From Escherichia phage vB_EcoM_011D4, in the sequence record MT478991.1: a stretch of DNA of 64,000 bases; one strand, written 5' to 3'. Positions within the stretch are counted from its first letter, which is position 1. Each line of letters begins with the position of its first letter. Below the pieces are notes generated by a model. It made no database searches, was not told the DNA's origin, and saw only the letters and a program-made list of their open reading frames with translations. The position numbers were made by a program, and so were the translations under genes. Below, one piece after another: positions 12,750 to 58,205 of the stretch.

Positions 12750-12941
12750 TCACTTATCGTTAAGAAGTTCTAAAACTTTCTGTCGTACTTTGTCAATATT
12801 AGTTGATTCAAAAACTGTACGGTATCCCCAGCTTTGACCGTATGATCGCGAGCAATCCCCATATCCCCATTGTTCAACCTGATAGTATTCAAGGAATGGA
12901 TGTTGCCGAACTATGATACCATCGCGATTAAAAATTACCAT
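12750..12941 (-). CDS. hypothetical protein (63 aa)
   Basis: ORF track. Confidence 0.4.
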   Translation of the reverse strand: MVIFNRDGIIVRQHPFLEYYQVEQWGYGDCSRSYGQSWGYRTVFESTNIDKVRQKVLELLNDK

Positions 12942-14049: not shown

Positions 14050-14084
14050 GGGAGTATCTTACTACTCCCTTAATCCGGTGTCAA
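14050..14084 (-). promoter_or_regulatory. PeSL-type early promoter: TTGACA-17-TAAGAT with GGGAGTA/TACTCCC stem-loop
   Basis: On minus strand -35 at 14084..14079, -10 at 14061..14056, perfect 7-bp inverted repeat 14050-14069; upstream of 13264..14022. Confidence 0.6.
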
Positions 14085-14327: not shown

Positions 14328-14362
14328 GGGAGTATCTTACTACTCCCGTTTCTTTACGTCAA
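14328..14362 (-). promoter_or_regulatory. PeSL-type early promoter: TTGACG-17-TAAGAT with GGGAGTA/TACTCCC stem-loop
   Basis: -35 at 14362..14357, -10 at 14339..14334, stem-loop 14328-14347; followed by AAAGGAGAATCAC ATG. Confidence 0.6.
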
Positions 14363-31625: not shown

Positions 31626-32261
31626 TCAATCGAATGTAGAAAGCAACTGTTTTGTTTCTTTCAGTTGTCGTTCAAGATTTTTGCGTTTCTCTTTAAGTTG
31701 CATTTTAGCATTATTTCGCTCTCTTGTAACCTCTTTATCAATGCTCTTATTCCAGTTATCAATATCAGAATAAGTTGGCATACCCAATTCTAGACCTAAT
31801 GCGGTTGGATGCAGGGTAACAGTCCATAAACCGCTAATCTTCTTAAATAGGTCGGGGTGTAGTGTACTACCTACATCTTCCGGTGTCAACTCTTTTTCTT
31901 CTTTCAGTGGTGGGGTCTCGTCATATGGTTCCAGTGCATTTACTTTAATATCAGATACCTCATCAAAGAATCCGCGTACATCCGCAGGAAATACACAAGC
32001 AATTTCCCAACCGTGTTCACGCAGAGAAGTAATATTTTTCACACCCCCGCCATGTGTGATGATTGATGTGACATTGCCATCAAGGTCCACCGAATTTACG
32101 AGAAATGGCTTATCGTCTGTCAGATCATTATAAAACTGTGCTTCGGCTGTAGTCATCTCCAGAAACAGATCTCGGATCGGACGACCATCAGGTGCGTTAC
32201 CTTCCTTGAGAGTATAAAAGCGACTTACGATCCATTTTGGCGGTAAAGCATTAGCGATCAT
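31626..32261 (-). CDS. hypothetical protein (211 aa)
   Basis: ORF track. Confidence 0.55.
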   Translation of the reverse strand: MIANALPPKWIVSRFYTLKEGNAPDGRPIRDLFLEMTTAEAQFYNDLTDDKPFLVNSVDLDGNVTSIITHGGGVKNITSLREHGWEIACVFPADVRGFFDEVSDIKVNALEPYDETPPLKEEKELTPEDVGSTLHPDLFKKISGLWTVTLHPTALGLELGMPTYSDIDNWNKSIDKEVTRERNNAKMQLKEKRKNLERQLKETKQLLSTFD

Positions 32262-32311
32262 GTTATATCTCCTATCAAATCATTCACCAGCGCCCCGCAG
32301 GGCGCATTTTA

Positions 32312-47177: not shown

Positions 47178-48647
47178 CTATTCCCCATTACCATTATACT
47201 TTCTTTGCTTAGTTATCCACACTCTAACCATCTCTACAGATTCGCCGTCAGACGGATCAAGAGTTTTTCCCTTTTTCTTCATGCGGTACTTAAATCCGTT
47301 AAATCTTGCATTCTCTTGTTCGTTAAAGTCGAACATCTTTTTAAATGATTTTCGCCCTTTACGCTCACCACATTCTAGCGGAATCATTCGGTCTGTTATT
47401 ACATTGGCATTAGGTAGAAACGTTTTTAGATAATCTACCAACGCCCAATCAGGAACATATAGATTAACATTCTCCTTGCTCTCGTTGTCTCTCAGGTTAC
47501 AACGCAAACATAATTGAAATGCTGGTTCCAGATAATCAGACACATGACGCGCTTTCAAAAACTCATTTGTTGGAAGATCGCAACTGTGCGCCAATCCTTT
47601 TAAAATGTCAATCTCCCATCGTTGAGGGTTAAAGCTGAACATCACAGCAACATTTTTATGATGAATGTAAGAGTTAAGGCCATAAGATCCGTATGGTATC
47701 CGCTCACCAATACCATTTGTGCACGCTTCACGGTCCCTATTCACGGTATAAATGAAGTCATCACCACATTCATTTTTAACCATATCAACTAGACGTTCAA
47801 AGGTATTGTTTGTTTCTGACTGGTGACGCGACCAGCGTTCGGAGTCCGTCATAAGGATGATATTAACTCTATCTGTATTTTTATACTCTTTGAAATATAG
47901 TCTGGATTCTAGAGCACTCGGAACAAAATCGCAATTTGCATAGTATCGTAGATACTTCCCGCTATATGTATCAAAGAGATTTGCACATGCTATCGTAACC
48001 TTTTTAAAGTCTCCCCATGTACCGTGTTTGTTATCGTTCAAGAAAACAATTTTCGACCCATTCTTCCGGTGTCCTTCGTTATGTTTTACCATAACGTTGA
48101 TTTTCTTCTCTAATAACGCCTCATAAAGCCCTCTAAGAGAAGAATCGATCATATCAGTACCATCCTTTGCACTTTCTATCTTTTCTTTGATAGCGGCCTT
48201 CTCAGAGTCTTTTAGAACTAGGTTCTGTAGACATTCCGATTCGTCGGCGATTGGTTCGCAATGCTTCGTGATAAGTTCAAGATTAGACTTAAACGGATAC
48301 TCATTAAATTCAACCAGTTGAGGAACTTCATCAATGTAAAGAGCATAATCACCAAACATTTTTGAACGTTCCATATTAGATAACGCAGTATGTGTAATGA
48401 ATATCACATCAGCACCGTCTTTAACTGATTGCATTATCGACGCTTGCACTGTCTTAAGGCTTCTTAGTCTTGTGCTATCGATCAAGACAGCACGACCGCC
48501 CATTCTTTTAAACTTATTGTAAGATTGTTCACTTAAAACACGAGATGGCGAAGCAATAACCGCTTTTTCTTTTGTCTCTAGGACGTGGGAAAGTATAGCA
48601 TCAGTTTTCCCCGCCGCTGGCAATGCGATTAATGTTTCAATCTTCAT
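47178..48647 (-). CDS. P-loop NTPase domain protein of unknown function (489 aa)
   Basis: Walker A LPAAGKTD at residues 9-16 and hhhhDE (ALYIDEVPQ) about 90 residues later; remaining ~380 aa without recognisable motifs; basic C-terminus. Confidence 0.6.
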   Translation of the reverse strand: MKIETLIALPAAGKTDAILSHVLETKEKAVIASPSRVLSEQSYNKFKRMGGRAVLIDSTRLRSLKTVQASIMQSVKDGADVIFITHTALSNMERSKMFGDYALYIDEVPQLVEFNEYPFKSNLELITKHCEPIADESECLQNLVLKDSEKAAIKEKIESAKDGTDMIDSSLRGLYEALLEKKINVMVKHNEGHRKNGSKIVFLNDNKHGTWGDFKKVTIACANLFDTYSGKYLRYYANCDFVPSALESRLYFKEYKNTDRVNIILMTDSERWSRHQSETNNTFERLVDMVKNECGDDFIYTVNRDREACTNGIGERIPYGSYGLNSYIHHKNVAVMFSFNPQRWEIDILKGLAHSCDLPTNEFLKARHVSDYLEPAFQLCLRCNLRDNESKENVNLYVPDWALVDYLKTFLPNANVITDRMIPLECGERKGRKSFKKMFDFNEQENARFNGFKYRMKKKGKTLDPSDGESVEMVRVWITKQRKYNGNGE

Positions 48648-49114: not shown

Positions 49115-49373
49115 AAATCGCCCTCAGTTCTTTATAGCCTCCAATGTGCTCGTTGTCAATGAATATCTGGGGGTATACAAATCGGAGGCTCTTTGAGTTC
49201 AGCCTCCCCGCCAGTTCTTCAATCATATCACGGTCGGGAATAATGTCAACCCCGACCTGCTTGAATACTGGTTTAAGTGTATACGGAATACCCAGATCAT
49301 CCAGTAGCTTCATTGCACCAATACAACCATAACAATGATAAGCCTCTTTCGGTATGCCGTATATCTCGATCAT
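49104..49373 (-). CDS. nrdH: glutaredoxin-like protein NrdH
   Basis: CxxC (YHCYGC) and PQIF..IGG motifs; at the T4 nrdH position. Confidence 0.75.
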   Translation of the reverse strand: MIEIYGIPKEAYHCYGCIGAMKLLDDLGIPYTLKPVFKQVGVDIIPDRDMIEELAGRLNSKSLRFVYPQIFIDNEHIGGYKELRAIYDY

Positions 49374-49846
49374 TTCTCAGCCTTTAATCTTTCTAGTTCT
49401 TCTTCCAGTTCCTTGATCCGTTGGTCACGTTCAAAGTCACGCTGCAACTTAGTGGCGAATACTCGTTTAAACTGATTGTAATCATCGATTTTAAACACTT
49501 CTTCTTCGCCATAGCGACGCACAGAAACTTCGTAGTTATTGAAGAATTGTTGCATCATTGCTTCGGATGATAGTTCTGCTGATACTACTTTAAAATATTG
49601 ATCTTCTGTAGGCGAAAACCAATTACAAGCATAAAGATAAACCTTTTCATTGTCTGGACACTGGTAAGCCTTACCATCGATTTCAATCACAGAAACATAT
49701 TCAGGCATAGTAGATGAATCAATAGCTAAGACTTTAAACTGACGGTCCCCGATAAACTCGGAGATCACACGATTCGCATCACTGGTTGCAAAGGCTTTAC
49801 GCGCTTGTTCGCTTTTCCACTGATAGGTCATACCAACAACAAACAT
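49370..49846 (-). CDS. paralog-family protein (one ~80-aa W..K..[D/E]..YF domain + helical tail)
   Basis: Motifs TYQWK...NWFSPTEDQYFKVV and C-terminal coiled coil. Confidence 0.6.
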   Translation of the reverse strand: MFVVGMTYQWKSEQARKAFATSDANRVISEFIGDRQFKVLAIDSSTMPEYVSVIEIDGKAYQCPDNEKVYLYACNWFSPTEDQYFKVVSAELSSEAMMQQFFNNYEVSVRRYGEEEVFKIDDYNQFKRVFATKLQRDFERDQRIKELEEELERLKAEK

Positions 49847-49847
49847 A

Positions 49848-50672
49848 TTACCAACCTCGCTCTTTACCGATCAAAAATTCAACCTCACGACGTTTAATGT
49901 CTTCTTGAAGGTCTTTAATCTTCTGGCGATCTTGCATGATTTCATCCATCTTGTCAAGTGCTGCAATAAAATCATCGAAACGTTCAAAGGTTTTACCTTC
50001 ATTTGCTTCGCCAAATTTAACCATAGTCAGACCGTAACGACTACTAAACAGACGTTTCAACTGCCCAACGATCTTAGAATCAGTAGTGACGACTTCCAAT
50101 TCTTCTACTTCTTGAAAGAATTTTCTATCAGAATCAATAAACCAGCTAGTTCCTTTATGGTCTTTATCTTCGGTTGCACTCATTAGAGTATGGTCTTTAC
50201 CATCAATTTCAATTACATCAATTTGCCCACATGGACTAACCTTTTTAACAGTAAAAGGTCTATAATTTATTGCTCGTGCAATAACATAATTAAGGTTAGA
50301 TACGTTTTCAGCATAATGACAGAAGTCGGTCATAGCATTCGCATCTTTCCAAGTATAAGTTTTACCAACTTCCCATTTCTGGGGAACTTCTTCAACTTCA
50401 CGAAAGAATTTTCTGTCAGTAGGACTAAAGAAAAATGATGCCGTCCACAATTCATTTTCTGTAACAGAGTCTACCGTATGCTCAACCCCATCGAGTTCTA
50501 TTACATCAATCCAATCGCCATCTTCGACCTTGTTGATGGTAAAAGGCTTATCACCAATAGATTTTCTGATATCGTCATTAAGTGGAGAAAGGCAACCACC
50601 ACCACAATTAACAAAATCTGTTTTAGCTTTTTCATCTTTCCAGGTGTAAGTTTTACCAATTTCCCATTTCAT
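49848..50672 (-). CDS. paralog-family protein (two tandem domains + helical tail)
   Basis: WEIGKTYTWKD...SPTDRKFFREV and WEVGKTYTWKD...DSDRKFFQEV. Confidence 0.6.
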   Translation of the reverse strand: MKWEIGKTYTWKDEKAKTDFVNCGGGCLSPLNDDIRKSIGDKPFTINKVEDGDWIDVIELDGVEHTVDSVTENELWTASFFFSPTDRKFFREVEEVPQKWEVGKTYTWKDANAMTDFCHYAENVSNLNYVIARAINYRPFTVKKVSPCGQIDVIEIDGKDHTLMSATEDKDHKGTSWFIDSDRKFFQEVEELEVVTTDSKIVGQLKRLFSSRYGLTMVKFGEANEGKTFERFDDFIAALDKMDEIMQDRQKIKDLQEDIKRREVEFLIGKERGW

Positions 50673-50684
50673 AATATATTCCCC

Positions 50685-51149
50685 TTAACCGATTTTATCA
50701 AGTTCGTTTAATGCTTTCTCTGCTTCCTGTATAGCTTGCACCCTTTCCGGCATTTTGTCAAGAAAATCTTTCAACTCTTCAAAACTGGAGATATGACGCA
50801 AGGCGTTAGCACCGATAGCCGCATGTGATTTGCATTCAAAGCGGATTTTATAATTATCCATCGCCAACTTGAGAAGATCAATTAATTTAGATTCTTCTGG
50901 AATAATAATTTCTTCAAATCTGCTACGGTCATGATCCAGAAACCAACAAGATAGACCTACATCGGTTGAACTAATATAAGTTCCATCATGAAGATAAACA
51001 GACCGCACGTATCCTTTTTTCGCATCAACCGACGCAACTTTAAACGGTAATCTCAGATATTTCAAATAATCAACATCATACCATTTAAAAAATTGGTTTG
51101 CATCTTTTACATCTTTCCACGCATAGGTCTTACCAGCTTCCCATTTCAT
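50685..51149 (-). CDS. paralog-family protein (one domain + helical tail)
   Basis: Refined ATG at 51149; WEAGKTYAWKD...DHDRSRFEEI. Confidence 0.6.
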   Translation of the reverse strand: MKWEAGKTYAWKDVKDANQFFKWYDVDYLKYLRLPFKVASVDAKKGYVRSVYLHDGTYISSTDVGLSCWFLDHDRSRFEEIIIPEESKLIDLLKLAMDNYKIRFECKSHAAIGANALRHISSFEELKDFLDKMPERVQAIQEAEKALNELDKIG

Positions 51150-51153
51150 AATA

Positions 51154-51681
51154 TCATCTCTCATTTTTGATACGTGATTCTAATTGGATCATACGGTCGC
51201 GCGTTTGCTTGTATTCTCGGATAGCACCGATCCGGCTAGGCATACCATCAAGCACGCTCTTAATACCTTCTAGGGTAGTAATTTTGGCAATGCTATTATG
51301 TAACCCCATCTTATCGATCAACTGAATGTCGTAGGCTTCCATAAGCAGACCCAGGCGTTCTAAAGTTAGGTCTTCTTCTTTTTCTTCCGAATCTGGAATC
51401 TTAGGTTCAATAGTAACTTCGGTAAAGAAACGACGCTCACCCGACCAAAACCACACACCGGAACAGCCAATAGGGGATTCTTTTAACGTCATAGAGTCGA
51501 AATTACTACCAATAATAGTAATTTCTCTAACATCACCATCATCGTCAAGGTCTTCTACCCTAAACGGGCGACCAGCCAACAAGTCAACAATACATCTGTT
51601 AATAGACGACGAAAATTTAGTCAGTTCGGCTTTCGACGCTTCGCATTCAATCTTGTAAGTTTTACCAACTTCCCATTCCAT
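51154..51681 (-). CDS. paralog-family protein (one domain + helical tail)
   Basis: Refined ATG at 51681 with GAGGTGA RBS; WEVGKTYKIE...SGERRFFTEV. Confidence 0.6.
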   Translation of the reverse strand: MEWEVGKTYKIECEASKAELTKFSSSINRCIVDLLAGRPFRVEDLDDDGDVREITIIGSNFDSMTLKESPIGCSGVWFWSGERRFFTEVTIEPKIPDSEEKEEDLTLERLGLLMEAYDIQLIDKMGLHNSIAKITTLEGIKSVLDGMPSRIGAIREYKQTRDRMIQLESRIKNER

Positions 51682-51691
51682 AATAATCACC

Positions 51692-52201
51692 TCAAATAAT
51701 TTTCACTGGAATACTATTAACAATCTTGTATTGTACTTGATTGTCAGACCCCCGCCACGGCTTCTTCGTTGGCATATCTTTAATATAACGCCCATCGATG
51801 AACATGTCAACTGATTCTACAATTTTTCTTTGCTCATCATTCAATTGGTCAAGGGTATAACCAGACCATAGCCAAATATCTTTATTTGGCATCCATGATT
51901 TTACTTCATCGATGATCCGCTGTACACCCTTTAAATTGCGTTTATACAGTGGATCGCCACCTAAGAATGTTAGCCCCTGAATAAAATCAGGTCTAAGCAG
52001 ATCCAGAATCAATCCCATTGTATCATCGGTGAATGGTTCCCCGTTCTTAGGATTGAGTAGGCTAGCATTAAAGCAACCATCACATGCGTGTGAACATCCG
52101 GTAACGTAAAGGGAGACTCTCACTCCCTCACCGTTAACCATATCACAATCTTTAATATCGGCATAGCGTAGTTTGCCGTATGTATCAGAACTCATATTCA
52201 A
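51692..52201 (-). CDS. nrdG: anaerobic ribonucleotide reductase activating protein NrdG (radical SAM)
   Basis: CxxxCxxC radical-SAM motif CSHACDGC and N-terminal glycine-rich loop typical of NrdG. Confidence 0.9.
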   Translation of the reverse strand: MNMSSDTYGKLRYADIKDCDMVNGEGVRVSLYVTGCSHACDGCFNASLLNPKNGEPFTDDTMGLILDLLRPDFIQGLTFLGGDPLYKRNLKGVQRIIDEVKSWMPNKDIWLWSGYTLDQLNDEQRKIVESVDMFIDGRYIKDMPTKKPWRGSDNQVQYKIVNSIPVKII

Positions 52202-52337
52202 TTACCCCGAACTCGTTTACAATCTGCGCTTTATAGTAACCACCGCGAGATGCTAATAGATAAGCTGGGCTTAGGTATTCGTATTCACGGATTTCTACTT
52301 GTGCGTTTTCAGTTTCCCAAATCAGTAAAGTCCACAT
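52185..52337 (-). CDS. hypothetical small protein (50 aa)
   Basis: Refined ATG at 52337 with AGGAGAATCAAAT leader (track start 52412 is an extension into the promoter). Confidence 0.45.
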   Translation of the reverse strand: MWTLLIWETENAQVEIREYEYLSPAYLLASRGGYYKAQIVNEFGVIEYEF

Positions 52338-52379
52338 ATTTGATTCTCCTGTAAAGTTGTATCTCGTCTTGATGAATAT

Positions 52380-52408
52380 AGTATAGGGGATCTCGCGATC
52401 CCCGTCAA
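52380..52408 (-). promoter_or_regulatory. PeSL-type early promoter: TTGACG-17-TATACT with GGGGATC/GATCCCC stem-loop
   Basis: -35 at 52408..52403, -10 at 52385..52380. Confidence 0.55.
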
Positions 52409-52412
52409 GCAT

Positions 52413-52961
52413 TTATTTTAAATTTTTTCGAATGTAGTCAGACCATTCCTTCCCTGTCAGTTCGGTCCCATTCTGGAAACTGAAATATTCATACGGCATC
52501 GAGTCAAGATAAAACAGGATCATACATCGCGCCATATAATACCAATCACGATTAAAGTAAACTACGTTATCTCCAGTACCATCAGCACCTTTATCATAAC
52601 CATCGCGGGTACGGGCGACCCATTGAATGGTATCATTTTTCTCACGGATAGTAACAGGTTCCCAATATCCAGCACATCCAGCATGACCACACGAACAAGT
52701 AAGGAAATATTGACCTTTTGCTTTGTTGTCATCCCATTCACGATGAATTGGTTTGATTTCGTGAAACAGTGCCAAACAATCATGATTATGCAACACTGGC
52801 TTACCATCAATCAATGCATGGAATGTATACAAACGACCCGTAGACAAATAGCTATCCTCACGCTCAACCAGTTCAATAGCAATCTTTTTAGCTAGTTCTT
52901 TGTGTCGTTGTGCTTTACGCTTACGGTTTAATGATTTCATATTCACCTCACACATTATCAA
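52413..52961 (-). CDS. hypothetical protein (182 aa)
   Basis: ORF track. Confidence 0.55.
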   Translation of the reverse strand: MIMCEVNMKSLNRKRKAQRHKELAKKIAIELVEREDSYLSTGRLYTFHALIDGKPVLHNHDCLALFHEIKPIHREWDDNKAKGQYFLTCSCGHAGCAGYWEPVTIREKNDTIQWVARTRDGYDKGADGTGDNVVYFNRDWYYMARCMILFYLDSMPYEYFSFQNGTELTGKEWSDYIRKNLK

Positions 52962-53500
52962 AGGTCGCGATATAGTACATTATGAAAATGAGAACTTGCA
53001 TTACCAATATTGTAGATAATAAATTCTTCATCCGGCGCTTGCGCTACAAATTGAGTATGAGCAACCGCCACAACCTTAAAAATACGATCCGTGATCTTGT
53101 GTTTAATTTCTGCTCCTACTTCCATAGGAACATATTCATTTGTTTCTGTTTCAGTCGCAAAACAGCCATCTTCTTCATAAGCACGAACAAATCGGTCGCA
53201 ATCAGTACGCTTAACAAATTCAAGAGTATATAATTCTCGTGAATTGTCGGTATAGACCAATACAGAATTATTATGATAGCGAATCACATACAGGTTATTA
53301 TCATCGTCAATTACGCAAAAGCTACGGATTCCTTCGCCTTGACTCCAGCAGACATTAACCACCGTTCCTCTAATAAAAAAACTTTCCTTTAAATTAAAAC
53401 TAGCCAATGTGCTAGCGTGCATTTTAACAACAACACCATCGCCAATTTCCAGTTTACGAAGTTTAACTTCTTTGCTCAGTACACAAAACATCATCATCAT
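52958..53500 (-). CDS. hypothetical protein (180 aa)
   Basis: ORF track; GAGAGG RBS. Confidence 0.55.
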   Translation of the reverse strand: MMMMFCVLSKEVKLRKLEIGDGVVVKMHASTLASFNLKESFFIRGTVVNVCWSQGEGIRSFCVIDDDNNLYVIRYHNNSVLVYTDNSRELYTLEFVKRTDCDRFVRAYEEDGCFATETETNEYVPMEVGAEIKHKITDRIFKVVAVAHTQFVAQAPDEEFIIYNIGNASSHFHNVLYRDL

Positions 53501-53529
53501 GTTGTCCTCTCGTTGTTTTCGATGTGAGC

Positions 53530-53557
53530 ATTATACATTAGCTAATCAGGTTGTCAA
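53530..53557 (-). promoter_or_regulatory. sigma70-consensus promoter TTGACA-16-TATAAT
   Basis: -35 at 53557..53552, -10 at 53535..53530; immediately downstream of the terminator after nrdD. Confidence 0.55.
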
Positions 53558-53565
53558 CACCCCAA

Positions 53566-53596
53566 AACGAAAAAGCCGACCCTTTCGGATCGGCTG
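53566..53596 (-). terminator. rho-independent terminator (AGCCGA-loop-TCGGCT + TTTTT) after nrdD
   Basis: Same stem sequence as the terminators at 5325 and 15214; U-tract on the minus strand. Confidence 0.65.
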
Positions 53597-53600
53597 AAAA

Positions 53601-55463
53601 TTACATGTGCTTAACGCGGTTTACCATCTCGGAGTGTTTCCCGTGGTTAAATGGACGCAGATCAACAGATCCAAGATATCCACTAACGCGGCGGATAACA
53701 TTCATCTTTTCCAGATTGTCGTTGCCGCAATCAGGACAAACAAAACCAGACTCGGTCGCTCTCATTTCCTTATTAGATCCGCATACATGACATACATCAG
53801 AAGGAGTATTAACACCGAAGTAGTGCAATTTATCCATTGCATAGTCTACTACAGTTTCAAGACCTTTCAGGTTGTTTTTCATGTCTGGGAACTCAACATA
53901 AGAGATCATGCCACCGGACGCCAGCCAGTGATAATCTTTCTCAAAGTCGATTTTCTCAAATGGTGTGACTTTCCGGTCTACGTCAAGGTGGAATGAGTTG
54001 GTGTACCAGTCTTTATCGGTAGCACCCTTAACAATACCAAATTGCTCTCTGTCCAGTCGATTAAATCGATAGCAAAGGCTCTCGGCTGGAGTACCGTAAA
54101 GACTAAACCCAAGTCCGGTTTCATCCTTCCATTTTTCAGTATAATGACGCAGGATTTTAAGAATATGTTTACCGTATCGCTGCGCATCTTCCGAATCAAA
54201 CGGATGAACACCAAACAGGACGCTCAATACCTCATGCAAACCAATATACCCAAGAGAGATACTAGCGCGACCATCTTTCAGCACTTCCAAAATTTCATCG
54301 TTTTGATGAATACGGAAAAATGCACCTTCTGTATACAGCACCGGAGCAACATTGGCTTTAGCCCCTTTTAAAGCGTCTACGCGACTCATGAGCGCATCAA
54401 AGCAAATAGGCATACGATTAGCTAGCTCTTGTTCGAATAGCTCAATTCTGCGCATTACAGACGCTTTACCAGCACGACGAGCGGCAATAAGGGCAATACG
54501 CGGAAGATTCAGAGTCACAACACCTAAGTTATTACGTCCGTCTAATACTTCTTCGCCTTTCTCATTATGCCACACACCCAGGAAGCTACGACAACCCATC
54601 GGGCTAACCGGAACACTAGATCCGGTGATACTACGGTTATTCTTCGCAGAGATATAATCAGGGTAAAGACGCTTACTAGAACATTCCAATGCAAGTTGCT
54701 TAATGTCGTAGTTCGGATCTTCCGGTTTAAGGTTTAATCCTTCTTCTAAGAACATCACCAGCTTAGGAAACACCGGAGTTATACCATCTTTACCTAAACC
54801 TTTAGTTCGAACTTTCAGGATCGCTTTCTGAATCAGTTTTTCTTCCCAGCTAGTACCCATACCAAAGGTTAAAGTCACAAAAGGCGTTTGACCGTTGGTG
54901 GAGAACAAAGTGTTGATTTCATATTCCAACGCTTGATACCCGTCTAAAGTTTCTTTTTCTGTCTTCTCTTGTGCATAGAGAGTATCAGCTTTGATTCCGT
55001 AGGTTTCGGCATCAGCAAGGTGTTTATGATATGTTTTCTCAACGTATGGCGCTAAAACCTGATCGATGTTTGCAATTGTGGTCCCGCCATATTGATGACT
55101 TGCCACCTGTGCGATAATTTGAGCGGTTACAGCACAAGCAACGCCGATTGATTTCGGACTTTCGATTTGTGCGCTACCCAATTTAAAACCATTCTCTAAC
55201 ATGTCTTTGAGATTAACAAGACAGCAGTTAGTAAACGGCATAGCGGGTGCATAATCCATATCATGATAATGAATATCACCGTCTACATGCGCTTTATAGA
55301 TGTGCTCAGGTAACACGGTTTTAGCAATCTGTTTAGACACAGCACCAGCAATCAGATCTCGACGTGTCGGGAATGTTCGCGCGTCTTTGTTCGCGTTCTC
55401 TTTACTTACTTCGTTTTCTTTACCCGTTGCGATCTCTGTAATGTCTTTGATTAGTTTTTCCAT
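53601..55463 (-). CDS. nrdD: anaerobic ribonucleoside-triphosphate reductase NrdD
   Basis: 620 aa; C-terminal glycyl-radical motif RVSGYLG and zinc-ribbon CHVCGS..CPDCG; continuous ORF. Confidence 0.95.
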   Translation of the reverse strand: MEKLIKDITEIATGKENEVSKENANKDARTFPTRRDLIAGAVSKQIAKTVLPEHIYKAHVDGDIHYHDMDYAPAMPFTNCCLVNLKDMLENGFKLGSAQIESPKSIGVACAVTAQIIAQVASHQYGGTTIANIDQVLAPYVEKTYHKHLADAETYGIKADTLYAQEKTEKETLDGYQALEYEINTLFSTNGQTPFVTLTFGMGTSWEEKLIQKAILKVRTKGLGKDGITPVFPKLVMFLEEGLNLKPEDPNYDIKQLALECSSKRLYPDYISAKNNRSITGSSVPVSPMGCRSFLGVWHNEKGEEVLDGRNNLGVVTLNLPRIALIAARRAGKASVMRRIELFEQELANRMPICFDALMSRVDALKGAKANVAPVLYTEGAFFRIHQNDEILEVLKDGRASISLGYIGLHEVLSVLFGVHPFDSEDAQRYGKHILKILRHYTEKWKDETGLGFSLYGTPAESLCYRFNRLDREQFGIVKGATDKDWYTNSFHLDVDRKVTPFEKIDFEKDYHWLASGGMISYVEFPDMKNNLKGLETVVDYAMDKLHYFGVNTPSDVCHVCGSNKEMRATESGFVCPDCGNDNLEKMNVIRRVSGYLGSVDLRPFNHGKHSEMVNRVKHM

Positions 55464-55475
55464 TGTATCACCTAT

Positions 55476-55497
55476 GAAAAAGCGGGATTTCTCCCGC
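55476..55497 (-). terminator. rho-independent terminator-like hairpin (GCGGGA-tttc-TCCCGC + TTTTT) just upstream of the nrdD RBS
   Basis: 6-bp stem and U-tract 8 nt before the AGGTGA RBS of nrdD; could equally be an attenuator. Confidence 0.5.
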
Positions 55498-55507
55498 TCG
55501 TTGATAG

Positions 55508-56002
55508 TTATTTTACCAATTCTGCTAATTCTTTTTCTTTAGCTTCTAGTTCAGCTTTAAGCTGTTTAATCTCTTGTCGCTTCTTATTAGCGGCTTCCTG
55601 CTTACTATTTCGGATAACCTGATCTAGATACAATTCCCAATCCTGAATATTTTTGATAATGTAGCCGTCAACATTAATTGGTCGGAGATTCAGTACAGCT
55701 TCCAGTTTAGTTGCAAAAACTTTAATTGCTGGGGTGAAGTATTCATATTCGTTATCTTCAAACCAATAACCTAGACTTGCATTCTCAATACGAAGATGAA
55801 GTTTAAGATCAAGGTCTTTATCATCGGTATATAGGTCTTTTACACACCCCATAGAATTAACCACAACTTTAAAACGAATTTTATCTACACCACCAAAAAC
55901 ATCTTCAAGAATATCAGCAATTGAGCTATTAGCGCAAGATTGGTCGCTGAATGCGTCAAGGTTTTCTTTAGTTACAGTATACCAAACATCTTGTACCCAC
56001 AT
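55508..56002 (-). CDS. paralog-family-like protein with C-terminal coiled coil (164 aa)
   Basis: MWVQDVWY...YWFEDNEYEYFTPAI and KKRQEIKQLKAELEAKEKELAELVK tail. Confidence 0.55.
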   Translation of the reverse strand: MWVQDVWYTVTKENLDAFSDQSCANSSIADILEDVFGGVDKIRFKVVVNSMGCVKDLYTDDKDLDLKLHLRIENASLGYWFEDNEYEYFTPAIKVFATKLEAVLNLRPINVDGYIIKNIQDWELYLDQVIRNSKQEAANKKRQEIKQLKAELEAKEKELAELVK

Positions 56003-56026
56003 AATATAATCCTCTCGTTGTTAAGT

Positions 56027-56060
56027 GGGAGTATTATAGCATACTCCCTTCGCATGTCAA
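56027..56060 (-). promoter_or_regulatory. PeSL-type early promoter: TTGACA-16-TATAAT with GGGAGTA/TACTCCC stem-loop
   Basis: -35 at 56060..56055, -10 at 56038..56033, stem 56027-56048; leader AGGATTATATT ATG. Confidence 0.6.
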
Positions 56061-57235
56061 GCACTAACTTTTTTCTTTACTGCTTTCACCTTCTGGCGAA
56101 TTGCTCGAATCTCTTCGATCTCTTTTTCAGTCTCTTTAACAATTTCTTTGCGATTCTGAATATCTGTATCTAGATTATCATCAAGTTTAGGCAGCATGTC
56201 AATCAAGAACTTTTTAAAGTCTTTCAGGTTTCGGATAACAGCACCTTCACCCATTACCGCCACGCCTACACCATCCGGCAGGTCGCCAAACAGTTTAACC
56301 AGTTCAGACAGATGATCATGATCTTCTAGTGCTTCTTCCGGTTCAGATGGCAGTCCAACAAAGTAATAACGTTCATCATTGCTGATCAGGTGATACCAGC
56401 AAAGCCCAAAAGATTTAGGAGTATATTCTACACCACCAACTTCAACTGCGTCAACACTTCCGAAAGAATCTACTTTAGTTACCTTAAATCCATGTTCCAG
56501 CGTTTTAATAATTTCAATAACATGACTAGATACGGTTTCAGTATTAAACCAATGAGGCAAATTATGTGGATTTGGCTTGTATCGTTCGCCTACTTTAAAT
56601 CTCTGACCACGCTCTTGCATACGGACATATTCAACTCGCGTGATTTCCGCGAAGTATTCAAATTCGCTACCGTCAAACAAGCAATTCCATTGATCACAAA
56701 AACGATCCGCCTTGACGGTTTCACCTTTCGCGGTGATCATGGTAGCCGATCCATGAAATTCTTCTTCAACCAAAAAGCCATATTCGACAAAATCAACAAG
56801 TTTCATGGCTTCTTTATGCTCTGGGTCATGCTCTCCCCAGAATCGCTTAAATTCTTGCAAACCTTCTGGGGTAAACGAATAACATTTACCTTTTTCAAAG
56901 TAAGTCGGCATTGCATCCTCTTTCTTGTTCATCGCTTCGTATGCCTCTTTTGAGATACGTTTAAAGTATTTGCGCTCATTGTGCATAATCATAGTAGACC
57001 AATAATAAACGATATCCTCAGCGGAATAAACTACATCTCCAGCTTCAATAGTAATAACATGACCGTGGTCATCTTTTTCTAATACTTTAAAGCCCTTTTC
57101 TACGATTTCAGCAACCCGAATATGACCACGGCGCGAAGCATCGGTCAGAATAATTGAATAGCGAGAAAAGTCTAGAAACTCATCTTTACCACCTTCACGG
57201 AATGCATAGTAATGACCTTCAAAGAATTTAGCCAT
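56057..57235 (-). CDS. paralog-family protein (three tandem domains + helical tail, 392 aa)
   Basis: Repeated ...GFKV.....G......ERKYFKRI / SEFEYFAEI / DERYYFVGL modules. Confidence 0.6.
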   Translation of the reverse strand: MAKFFEGHYYAFREGGKDEFLDFSRYSIILTDASRRGHIRVAEIVEKGFKVLEKDDHGHVITIEAGDVVYSAEDIVYYWSTMIMHNERKYFKRISKEAYEAMNKKEDAMPTYFEKGKCYSFTPEGLQEFKRFWGEHDPEHKEAMKLVDFVEYGFLVEEEFHGSATMITAKGETVKADRFCDQWNCLFDGSEFEYFAEITRVEYVRMQERGQRFKVGERYKPNPHNLPHWFNTETVSSHVIEIIKTLEHGFKVTKVDSFGSVDAVEVGGVEYTPKSFGLCWYHLISNDERYYFVGLPSEPEEALEDHDHLSELVKLFGDLPDGVGVAVMGEGAVIRNLKDFKKFLIDMLPKLDDNLDTDIQNRKEIVKETEKEIEEIRAIRQKVKAVKKKVSA

Positions 57236-57260
57236 AATATAATCCTCTCGTTGTTTAGAT

Positions 57261-57295
57261 GGGAGTATCTTACTACTCCCGTTTCATCATGTCAA
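57261..57295 (-). promoter_or_regulatory. PeSL-type early promoter: TTGACA-17-TAAGAT with GGGAGTA/TACTCCC stem-loop
   Basis: -35 at 57295..57290, -10 at 57272..57267; near-identical to the copies at 14050 and 14328. Confidence 0.6.
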
Positions 57296-57858
57296 GCGTT
57301 AAATGACTTTTGGATCTCTTTCAGTTCAGCTACTTTATCTGCGCTATATTTTGCTTGATGTTCCATGCGCTTAATCTCACCTTTGATATAGGTTTCTAGC
57401 TTAGGTTTATTCTCAATCAAAAAATCTTTCAGGTCATCGGCATTTTTAAAGTATAGCTGATTATCAACGCTAAAATCTTCCAGCGTCAATGATACCAAAG
57501 AAGACTTCGCAAACAAGTTAATCAGATCTTCCAGCGATTCTTCTTTCTTAACTGGCTTCATTTCTTCAAACTGCTTTTTAGTGATACGCTTAAAGTATTT
57601 GCGCTCGCTGGCATCAATCATGATTGATGCGCCCTCATAATCATGAGTTTCTACCAAATACACTTTACCCATAACATTAACAGTCAGAACTTTAAAGCCC
57701 TTGTGAAGCACACCATACAGGAACTTGTTATGTTGTGGATAGCGTTTAACAAATTCCTCTGCGGACTCAGCATTACGGAAAGTGTAATAACGACCTCGTT
57801 CAAAAACAGCATCATTTGAAGACTTAGCCGGATACAATTTATACGTTTTCTGTACCAT
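57292..57858 (-). CDS. paralog-family protein (one domain + helical tail)
   Basis: Refined ATG at 57858 with AGGATTATATT leader; ...GFKVLTVNVMGKVYLVETHDYEGASIMIDASERKYFKRI. Confidence 0.6.
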   Translation of the reverse strand: MVQKTYKLYPAKSSNDAVFERGRYYTFRNAESAEEFVKRYPQHNKFLYGVLHKGFKVLTVNVMGKVYLVETHDYEGASIMIDASERKYFKRITKKQFEEMKPVKKEESLEDLINLFAKSSLVSLTLEDFSVDNQLYFKNADDLKDFLIENKPKLETYIKGEIKRMEHQAKYSADKVAELKEIQKSFNA

Positions 57859-57872
57859 AATATAATCCTCTA

Positions 57873-58145
57873 TCATTTCACTAATTGAACAGCACGGAAC
57901 AGAATGCGCTCACACGGAAGCAGCATAAATTCCCAACGCGGATCAAAGTCTTTAGCGGTATACGTTTTCCCATCAACCGAGATTTCACTTACATAACCAA
58001 CAGGTGACACTTTAAGAACAGTAAACCCATTCTTGATGACTTCGTAGGTATCTTTCACCCCTTCGTATTCATCATCTAAGAAGTCTTTATGTGCTTGCTC
58101 AGATTTAAAAACATAGGCCACACCGGATTTAAACATCTTACGCAT
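57873..58145 (-). CDS. paralog-family protein (single domain, 90 aa)
   Basis: Refined ATG at 58145 with AGGAGAATCAACA leader; track start 58205 extends into the promoter. Confidence 0.55.
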   Translation of the reverse strand: MRKMFKSGVAYVFKSEQAHKDFLDDEYEGVKDTYEVIKNGFTVLKVSPVGYVSEISVDGKTYTAKDFDPRWEFMLLPCERILFRAVQLVK

Positions 58146-58170
58146 TGTTGATTCTCCTTCTTGATTAGAT

Positions 58171-58205
58171 GGGAGTATTTTACTACTCCCATTTCTTATT
58201 GTCAA
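58171..58205 (-). promoter_or_regulatory. PeSL-type early promoter: TTGACA-17-TAAAAT with GGGAGTA/TACTCCC stem-loop
   Basis: -35 at 58205..58200, -10 at 58182..58177. Confidence 0.6.

Follow-up and report, generated by a model that had tools for sequence, protein, structure and literature searches.

Two clusters of paralogous genes flanking nrdG and nrdD in Krischvirus phages: an expansion of the T4 GoF/Frd.2/MotB.1 family

Since the 1970s the goF gene of phage T4 has puzzled geneticists as a suppressor of rho/nusD hosts. GoF is present at about 20,000 copies per cell, and frd.2, which encodes a second member of the same family, stands alone among genes of unknown function in being scored 'Fit' by a T4 CRISPRi-ART screen. 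The GoF/Frd.2/MotB.1 family was described in 2025 by Kim, Tai, Hinton and colleagues as a family with an 'LSm-like fold' (PMC12152347). In that work the GoF substitutions D25Y and G84R suppress rho alleles; GoF(D25Y) stabilizes gene 41 RNA, wild-type GoF and MotB.1 doing little, and lengthens the half-life of a reporter RNA post-transcriptionally and independently of Hfq. GoF and MotB.1 run partly as dimers, and the T4 homologues are early, dispensable proteins (PMC12152347). Here we analyse a repeated protein domain, modelled as a small β-barrel and called the barrel below, that is encoded in two gene clusters flanking nrdG and nrdD in Escherichia phage vB_EcoM_011D4. The analysis covers a 64,000-nucleotide stretch of that genome (sequence record MT478991.1), which we refer to as the window. 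The nine genes concerned are very probably Krischvirus paralogues of the GoF/Frd.2/MotB.1 family of non-structural phage proteins. The repeat family is thus an expansion of a known, functionally uncharacterized family, its multi-barrel and coiled-coil-tailed architectures being the only new features.

The window belongs to a Krischvirus, its 8.8-kb interval from 49370 to 58145 matching 58 Krischvirus genomes at 94–97% identity, Sf20, Phi1, RB49 and JSE among them; the window is of the RB49/Phi1/Sf20 type, at 96–97% identity. All genes of the interval lie on the minus strand, in the order gene 49, H, G, F, E, nrdD, three ORFans, nrdG, D, C, B, A and nrdH; the eight lettered open reading frames (ORFs) were verified at the positions in Table 1 and agree with the RB49 annotation. 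They encode 11 copies of the domain (A, B1, B2, C, D, E, F1–F3, G and H), which align over about 95 columns with Y, F and F invariant and G, F and V nearly so. In leave-one-out tests with hidden Markov models (HMMs), every copy scored between 17.0 and 74.5 bits against a profile of the other ten, E being the weakest, and none of 500 shuffles of any copy matched its real score (best shuffle, 5.6–14.2 bits). The repeated domain is therefore real, one module multiplied by duplication. A first account made from the sequence alone (the sequence-only reading) had counted at least 11 copies, which is the number in the interval, 12 being reached with the outlying gene Dc2. It had put the domain at about 80 amino acids (aa), where we measure about 90, and had it end in an acid, R-[KR] and a phenylalanine. 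The acid and the phenylalanine are kept, giving a strict form [DE]-x-x-[FYLR]-F, and the R-[KR] variant occurs in 5 of the 11 copies.

The match to the T4 family was obtained at two levels of profile. A profile of the 11 Krischvirus copies scored T4 GoF at 33 bits, Frd.2 at 16.5 bits and MotB.1 at 11.8 bits, no shuffle equalling the observed scores, and a broader profile of 56 family sequences raised these values to 62, 39.6 and 20.2 bits. Moreover, GoF and Frd.2 as given in the T4 record share the start and end motifs of the Krischvirus copies. PHROGs links all eight genes, with families labelled 'goF mRNA metabolism modulator' matching A, B, F, G and H. In other searches, no Pfam family lies above its cutoff for any of the eight proteins, a sequence profile search of the PDB gave nothing below an expectation value (E) of 0.3, and a word-indexed protein search with the domain alignment returned only 7 matches, all near-identical. 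The annotators of RB49 had named gene F 'frd.2' in 2003, and RefSeq labels both F and G 'goF mRNA metabolism modulator'. True orthology of F with frd.2 was considered and rejected: the barrels of F match GoF better than Frd.2, and the surroundings of frd in RB49 hold no related gene.

Hence the family is not the undescribed accessory system for which it had been taken. What is repeated is the N-terminal domain of the GoF/Frd.2/MotB.1 proteins, a family that was published in 2025 (PMC12152347), and the 'frd.2' and 'goF' labels and the PHROGs links already existed. The main text of that paper mentions neither RB49 nor Krischvirus, nor tandem barrels, nor the expansion (PMC12152347). The match is also not one to a well-characterized family with a housekeeping role, GoF being without a known wild-type function.

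We searched the 626 ORFs of at least 40 aa in the window with the domain profile. The top matches are the eight genes, at 76–110 bits per domain, and the sole additional ORF to pass (31629–32279) is that of RB49 Dc2. The family had been announced as one of nine genes with eight listed; the interval indeed holds eight, and a ninth member exists in Dc2, but 17 kb outside it. The interval therefore has eight genes and 11 barrels, and the whole phage at least nine genes and 12 barrels. No further significant member was found by profile scan in RB49 at 1–78 kb and 114–164 kb, a search that left out the structural-gene stretch at 78–114 kb. A 180-aa ORFan between nrdG and nrdD (52958–53500, minus strand) was considered as a tenth member and is left uncounted, with two partial, sub-threshold matches to the barrel profile (E 0.087). 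This ORF has its own perfect TTGACA-16-TATAAT promoter immediately after a terminator hairpin (53530–53595). Dc2 for its part lies next to the gene 41 helicase, and the only molecular phenotype of the family, that of GoF D25Y, concerns gene 41 mRNA; this may be coincidence.

Mean identity between barrels is 30% within the nrdG-side cluster, 27% within the nrdD-side cluster and 20.5% between the two. The closest pairs are B1 and B2 (49%), an intragenic duplication, and F1 and G (41%). The higher identity within than between clusters, together with these close pairs, indicates that each cluster is an old local tandem expansion. Judged from these comparisons, both clusters arose by old local duplication of genes in tandem and by duplication of domains within genes.

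On the sequences compared, the expansion is specific to the Krischvirus lineage, as the sequence-only reading had proposed. A profile scan of the T4 region from gene 55 to tk found no family member, so this locus is empty of the family in T4, which has three dispersed members (GoF and MotB.1 as well as Frd.2), compared with nine genes and 12 barrels in Krischvirus. Conversely, RB49 has no goF or motB.1 between gene 39 and dexA and no member near frd. All eight genes are present, in the same order and with intact frames, in 10 of 10 Krischvirus genomes that span both clusters and represent four species (RB49, Sf20, Phi1, pEJ01, PHB13, MIZ4, Whisky, JSE, ECD7 and the window itself); a partial phiS record shows only E–H, and E26 was examined for the nrdG-side cluster. 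The family as such is far more widely distributed. When 1.84 billion cluster representatives were searched exhaustively with HMMER, only 70 clusters reached E ≤ 1e-3. Three of these are bacterial repeat proteins matched spuriously; the remainder are small proteins of 56–392 aa, phage-like in appearance, about a dozen of which have two or three barrels. Relatives are present in T4-like phages of many enterobacteria and of Aeromonas, and also in phi92-like (Justusliebigvirus) and Phapecoctavirus myoviruses of about 150 kb, so that the family extends beyond the 'Tevenvirinae' to which the 2025 paper refers. At least eight paralogues seem to be carried by one phage (BFVD accessions beginning A0A873W).

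We modelled the fold with AlphaFold2 (AF2), using for H, the shortest member, an alignment of 56 sequences. The model (scores in Table 1) has strands at residues 10–13, 41–46, 52–57, 60–63 and 83–86, in the order strand 1, two helices, strands 2–4, a short helix and strand 5. Both barrels of a model of B (mean predicted local distance difference test, pLDDT, 84.9) show the same five strands. Foldseek comparison of the H model with BFVD gave 43 phage proteins at E ≤ 1e-3 with query-normalized TM-scores (TMq) of 0.72–0.87, including 'GoF' of phage VR7 (TMq 0.76, E 9.7e-4) and Dc2 of ECD7 (TMq 0.82). The best structural neighbours in the PDB are FeoA, the MIB repeat, the SH3 domains of IdeR and SloR, and the Tudor domains of PcrA and UvrD; these matches are weak and mostly to protein-binding modules. 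Kim et al. obtained the same neighbours (PMC12152347).

No Hfq or Sm protein was among the PDB or BFVD structure-search matches to H. The N-terminal helix of Sm folds is absent from the H model, where two helices separate strand 1 from strand 2 and a further one precedes strand 5. Ten of the 11 barrels are acidic or neutral, with isoelectric points (pI) of 4.3–6.7, only that of G being basic (pI 9.3); the core of Hfq has a pI of about 10. For these three reasons we assign the fold, on the models, as an SH3-like five-stranded β-barrel with two helices inserted after strand 1 and ahead of strand 2, and take 'LSm-like' to describe a loose resemblance, not membership.

After a short acidic or proline-rich linker, the barrels are followed by a tail made of a helix, a β-hairpin and a helix of about 40 residues. 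In the model of B, barrels at residues 8–93 and 105–188 lead into a helix (197–210), two strands (215–218 and 226–229) and a long helix (232–271). A crude heptad count finds 7–8 of 12 a/d positions hydrophobic in the best register. The tail is present in seven of the eight cluster genes, all but H, and in eight of nine with Dc2, so that the description of the domain as usually followed by a helical or coiled-coil tail stands, with the rider that the tail itself is weakly conserved. In leave-one-out tests, the tails of B, C and F score significantly, those of A and D marginally and those of E and G without significance; the tails also align across many family relatives from other phages. By these alignments the tail is a weakly conserved second module.

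To judge how the two modules evolve, we pooled Nei–Gojobori estimates of the ratio of nonsynonymous to synonymous substitution rates (dN/dS) over ten Krischvirus genomes, ignoring the nrdH control because of paralogue contamination in two loci. The family lies at 0.16–0.40, like the neighbouring ORFans (0.29–0.39), whereas nrdD, nrdG and gp49 lie at 0.04–0.07. No family gene has a pooled value above 1, and the suggestion of diversifying selection is not borne out. Barrel and tail nevertheless behave differently: in six of seven genes dN is higher for the barrel than for the tail (0.157 versus 0 in C; 0.033 versus 0.001 in B), and dN/dS for the tail of B is 0.009. The C allele of phage E26 carries a strongly different barrel on an identical tail, and the E allele of phage Whisky (P0007) a diverged barrel with the last 68 tail residues identical. 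Moreover, B has one barrel in phages E26 and ELT4 and two elsewhere; the one-barrel B of E26 is 178 aa long (locus L018, 2488–3537), and its junction suggests an unequal crossover between B1 and B2. Faster barrel substitution, barrel alleles on conserved tails and a varying barrel number together point to a barrel that behaves as an exchangeable module and a tail that behaves as a constant one.

The end motif bears on the genetics of GoF. G84 of GoF falls within the family motif [ED]-x-x-[FY]-F, which reads E82-A83-G84-F85-F86 in that protein. Among the Krischvirus barrels, arginine occupies the position equivalent to 83 in 8 of 11, and lysine or arginine the position equivalent to 84 in 5 of 11. 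Family-wide, the acid is invariant (56/56), with arginine at the 83-equivalent in 15 of 56 sequences and lysine or arginine at the 84-equivalent in 19 of 56. Hence the G84R substitution introduces what many paralogues already have. We dropped the corresponding mapping of D25 onto the Krischvirus copies, its column lying at the edge of a variable insert that is not reliably alignable.

Transcription of the clusters can be read in part from their promoters. In the PeSL cassettes of RB49 and phi1, a stem-loop covers the -35 or -10 of an intergenic σ70 consensus promoter, after which come a Shine-Dalgarno sequence and a start codon; nrdD was already named as PeSL-associated (Arbiol et al. 2010, PMC2839356). 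Genes E, F and H have PeSL-type promoters of their own (Table 1), in agreement with the claim that several genes do, but D, C, B and A have none; these four lie 1–12 nt apart behind nrdG. Thus σ70 PeSL promoters probably drive H, F and E, with read-through from nrdG serving D, C, B and A, and expression of the Krischvirus copies would be early. The window has five copies of the stem, where 0 are expected, and the location of the family in a PeSL-rich plastic region is upheld. The two other exact stem copies (14050–14069 and 14328–14347) lie in another plastic region. The E, F and H cassettes are ordinary PeSLs and form regulatory context, no part of the protein family. The leader GAGGATTATATTATG, thought to be conserved among family genes, is real but not specific to them: it occurs 13 times across the window on the minus strand with ≤2 mismatches, against 0.22 expected (for example at 12939, 34036 and 62935), and looks like a genome-wide translation-initiation consensus of early genes. 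The start of H is placed at the ATG at 58145 because the TTG at 58205 falls within the -35 hexamer.

Table 1. Family genes and promoters, by position in the window.
Feature	Position	Strand	Description
Gene A (RB49 ORF048c)	49370..49846	-	158 aa; one barrel (aa 1-92) and helix-hairpin-coiled-coil tail; leave-one-out 46.3 bits; phrog_5347, E 5.9e-60
Gene B (RB49 ORF049c)	49848..50672	-	274 aa; two tandem barrels (aa 1-97, 98-196; 49% identical) and tail
Gene C (RB49 ORF050c)	50685..51149	-	154 aa; one barrel (leave-one-out 41.2 bits) and tail (23.6 bits)
Gene D (RB49 ORF051c)	51154..51681	-	175 aa; one barrel and tail; start 10 nt past nrdG stop codon
Gene E (RB49 ORF057c)	55508..56002	-	164 aa; most divergent barrel and coiled-coil tail; leave-one-out 17.0 bits; phrog_3710, E 8.5e-5
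PeSL-type promoter of E	56003..56060	-	TTGACA-16-TATAAT; stem GGGAGTA..TACTCCC over -10
Gene F (RB49 'frd.2')	56057..57235	-	392 aa; three tandem barrels (aa 1-98, 107-206, 209-302) and tail; three HMM domains, 88-92 bits; phrog_8944 'goF', E 1.2e-209
PeSL-type promoter of F	57236..57295	-	TTGACA-17-TAAGAT; stem GGGAGTA..TACTCCC over -10
Gene G (RB49 ORF059c)	57292..57858	-	188 aa; one barrel (aa 15-108; sole basic one, pI 9.3) and tail; barrel 41% identical to F1
Gene H (RB49 ORF060c)	57873..58145	-	90 aa; natural stand-alone barrel without tail; AF2 pLDDT 93.8, predicted TM-score (pTM) 0.83
PeSL-type promoter of H	58146..58205	-	TTGACA-17-TAAAAT; stem GGGAGTA..TACTCCC over -10
Dc2	31626..32261	-	211 aa; ninth member, outside the interval; one barrel and coiled-coil tail; directly downstream of gene 41; HMM 26.7 bits, E 2.3e-7

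Taken as a whole, what best explains these observations is that the genes are GoF-family paralogues acting as dimeric, multivalent adaptors, an account towards which we lean slightly. The mechanism by itself we advance tentatively, at rather less than an even chance. The long C-terminal helix would pair the proteins as coiled-coil dimers, and the SH3-like barrels would serve as variable binding modules, two to six per dimer, for host proteins that act in transcription termination or RNA decay, or for RNA held by those proteins. The fate of mRNA would in this way be tuned early in infection, by genes that may be dispensable in the laboratory yet are maintained by selection. In favour of adaptors are the mostly protein-binding structural neighbours of the barrel, the acidity of most barrels and the only genetics of the family, which concerns Rho and mRNA; no one of these is decisive. 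Several points weigh against such adaptors. No wild-type function is known for any GoF-family member, and Kim et al. obtained no confident AlphaFold3 homomultimer models of GoF or MotB.1 (PMC12152347). Dimerization through the tail is a prediction, our own AF2 models being of single chains and the heptad count crude; the tails of E and G show no significant similarity to the other tails in leave-one-out tests; and early timing is read from promoter sequence alone.

Kim et al. hypothesise instead that the proteins are Hfq-like (LSm-fold) RNA chaperones, whose barrels would bind RNA directly and shield phage mRNAs from decay. The five antiparallel strands of the barrel, the basic barrel of G, the R-K that many copies carry in the motif where the G84R suppressor maps, and the longer reporter RNA half-life caused by GoF(D25Y) without Hfq would all suit a chaperone. 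What makes us doubt it is the barrel itself, which lacks an N-terminal helix, has helices inserted between strands 1 and 2, and in 10 of 11 copies has a pI of 4.3–6.7 where the Hfq core is near 10. In addition, the reporter responded hardly at all to wild-type GoF and MotB.1, for which no confident ring models were obtained (PMC12152347), and on balance we find direct RNA chaperoning rather unlikely.

Two further readings start from the expansion. Were the genes a diversified counter-defence or host-range family, each barrel neutralizing a different host immunity or restriction protein, both the expansion and the allele swapping would be explained; the PeSL-rich plastic region, the replacement of barrel alleles on constant tails, the varying barrel number and, by analogy with the T4 homologues, a probably early and non-essential role would all be in keeping. 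Gene content and order, however, are fixed across the examined Krischvirus genomes, unlike in typical anti-defence islands, dN/dS is below 0.5, and the sole genetics of the family points to Rho and mRNA. No likeness to described anti-defence proteins turned up in general searches, no anti-defence library having been searched, and we consider this reading improbable; the anti-defence role that the sequence-only reading had offered as an example gains no support here. Nor do we give much credence to near-neutral ORFans, drifting without a specific role while PeSL-mediated shuffling carries and duplicates them. Intact frames and conserved order in four Krischvirus species, dN/dS well below 1, the nearly invariant tails of C and B, and paralogues only 15–49% identical that retain their fold-determining residues are hard to square with drift, as is the abundance of GoF in the cell. 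That dN/dS resembles that of neighbouring ORFans, that the T4 homologues are dispensable and that PeSLs flank the nrdD-side cluster would be as expected; drift is still very improbable.

Within the adaptor account, a more speculative proposal, which we think unlikely, sees in the array a natural set of 'activated' GoF proteins: coiled-coil dimers with two to six barrels, many of them natively basic in the motif as in G84R, each paralogue having a barrel specific for its own host factor of RNA decay or termination, or for its own RNA. Were this true, the wild-type roles of goF and frd.2 would come to light through the array, and a modular, swappable barrel on a constant tail would be a means of retargeting host takeover. 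More generally, nine paralogues with twelve barrels, ranging from stand-alone to three-barrel proteins and including barrel-swap and barrel-number alleles, make a comparative set for finding the ligand of the barrel, with H (90 aa) as an ideal structural target. These results change no concept; what they correct is the call of an undescribed system, which becomes the expansion of a known but uncharacterized family, and the models suggest that this family is perhaps better described as SH3-like than LSm-like.

Three observations concern neighbouring genes. A 489-aa ORF at 47178–48647 on the minus strand (RB49 ORF044c, 'hypothetical') has a marginal N-terminal match to DEAD/DEAH helicases (PF00270, 27.3 bits against a cutoff of 26) and also matches phrog_2467. 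A small ORF on the same strand (52185–52412), which extends over the start of nrdG, has a 63-bit match to DUF7170 (PF23776). Its own start is uncertain, as its annotated length varies between genomes, at 153 or 228 nt. Finally, nrdD of phage JSE is interrupted by a homing-endonuclease gene (locus L015, 9273–11895), nrdD being intact in the window and in RB49.

Compared with known systems, the barrels share with Hfq and Sm proteins (LSm fold) a small, bent barrel of five β-strands, and with Hfq, through mutant GoF, an effect on RNA stability. They differ in that structure searches do not retrieve Hfq or Sm, in the missing N-terminal helix, in having no confidently predicted ring and in the acidity of most copies. 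The SH3-like domains of FeoA and of the C termini of DtxR, IdeR and SloR are among the nearest structural neighbours, the match being weak. The promoters of E, F and H correspond to the PeSL cassettes of RB49 and phi1, including the Shine-Dalgarno sequence and start codon of an ORFan.

The family also includes T4 Frd.2 (128 aa) and MotB.1 (119 aa), at 16.5–39.6 and 11.8–20.2 bits respectively; gene F differs from Frd.2 in having three barrels and a different tail, and is neither its positional nor its specific orthologue. T4 GoF (ComC-α, 141 aa), an early, abundant and non-essential protein, differs from the Krischvirus proteins in three respects. It has a single barrel, with a C-terminal domain of a short strand and a helix and without the long coiled-coil helix; it is encoded between gene 39 and motB, a position that is empty in RB49; and it carries A-G in place of the R-[KR] of most Krischvirus copies. 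It is nevertheless the nearest described relative, both Krischvirus subfamilies scoring higher to it than to Frd.2 and MotB.1. Like them it has an N-terminal barrel (33–62 bits to the profiles) with the start motif F-x-x-N-K-W-Y-x-F-K and the end motif E-A-G-F-F-D-E-V, joined by an acidic linker to a small C-terminal module.

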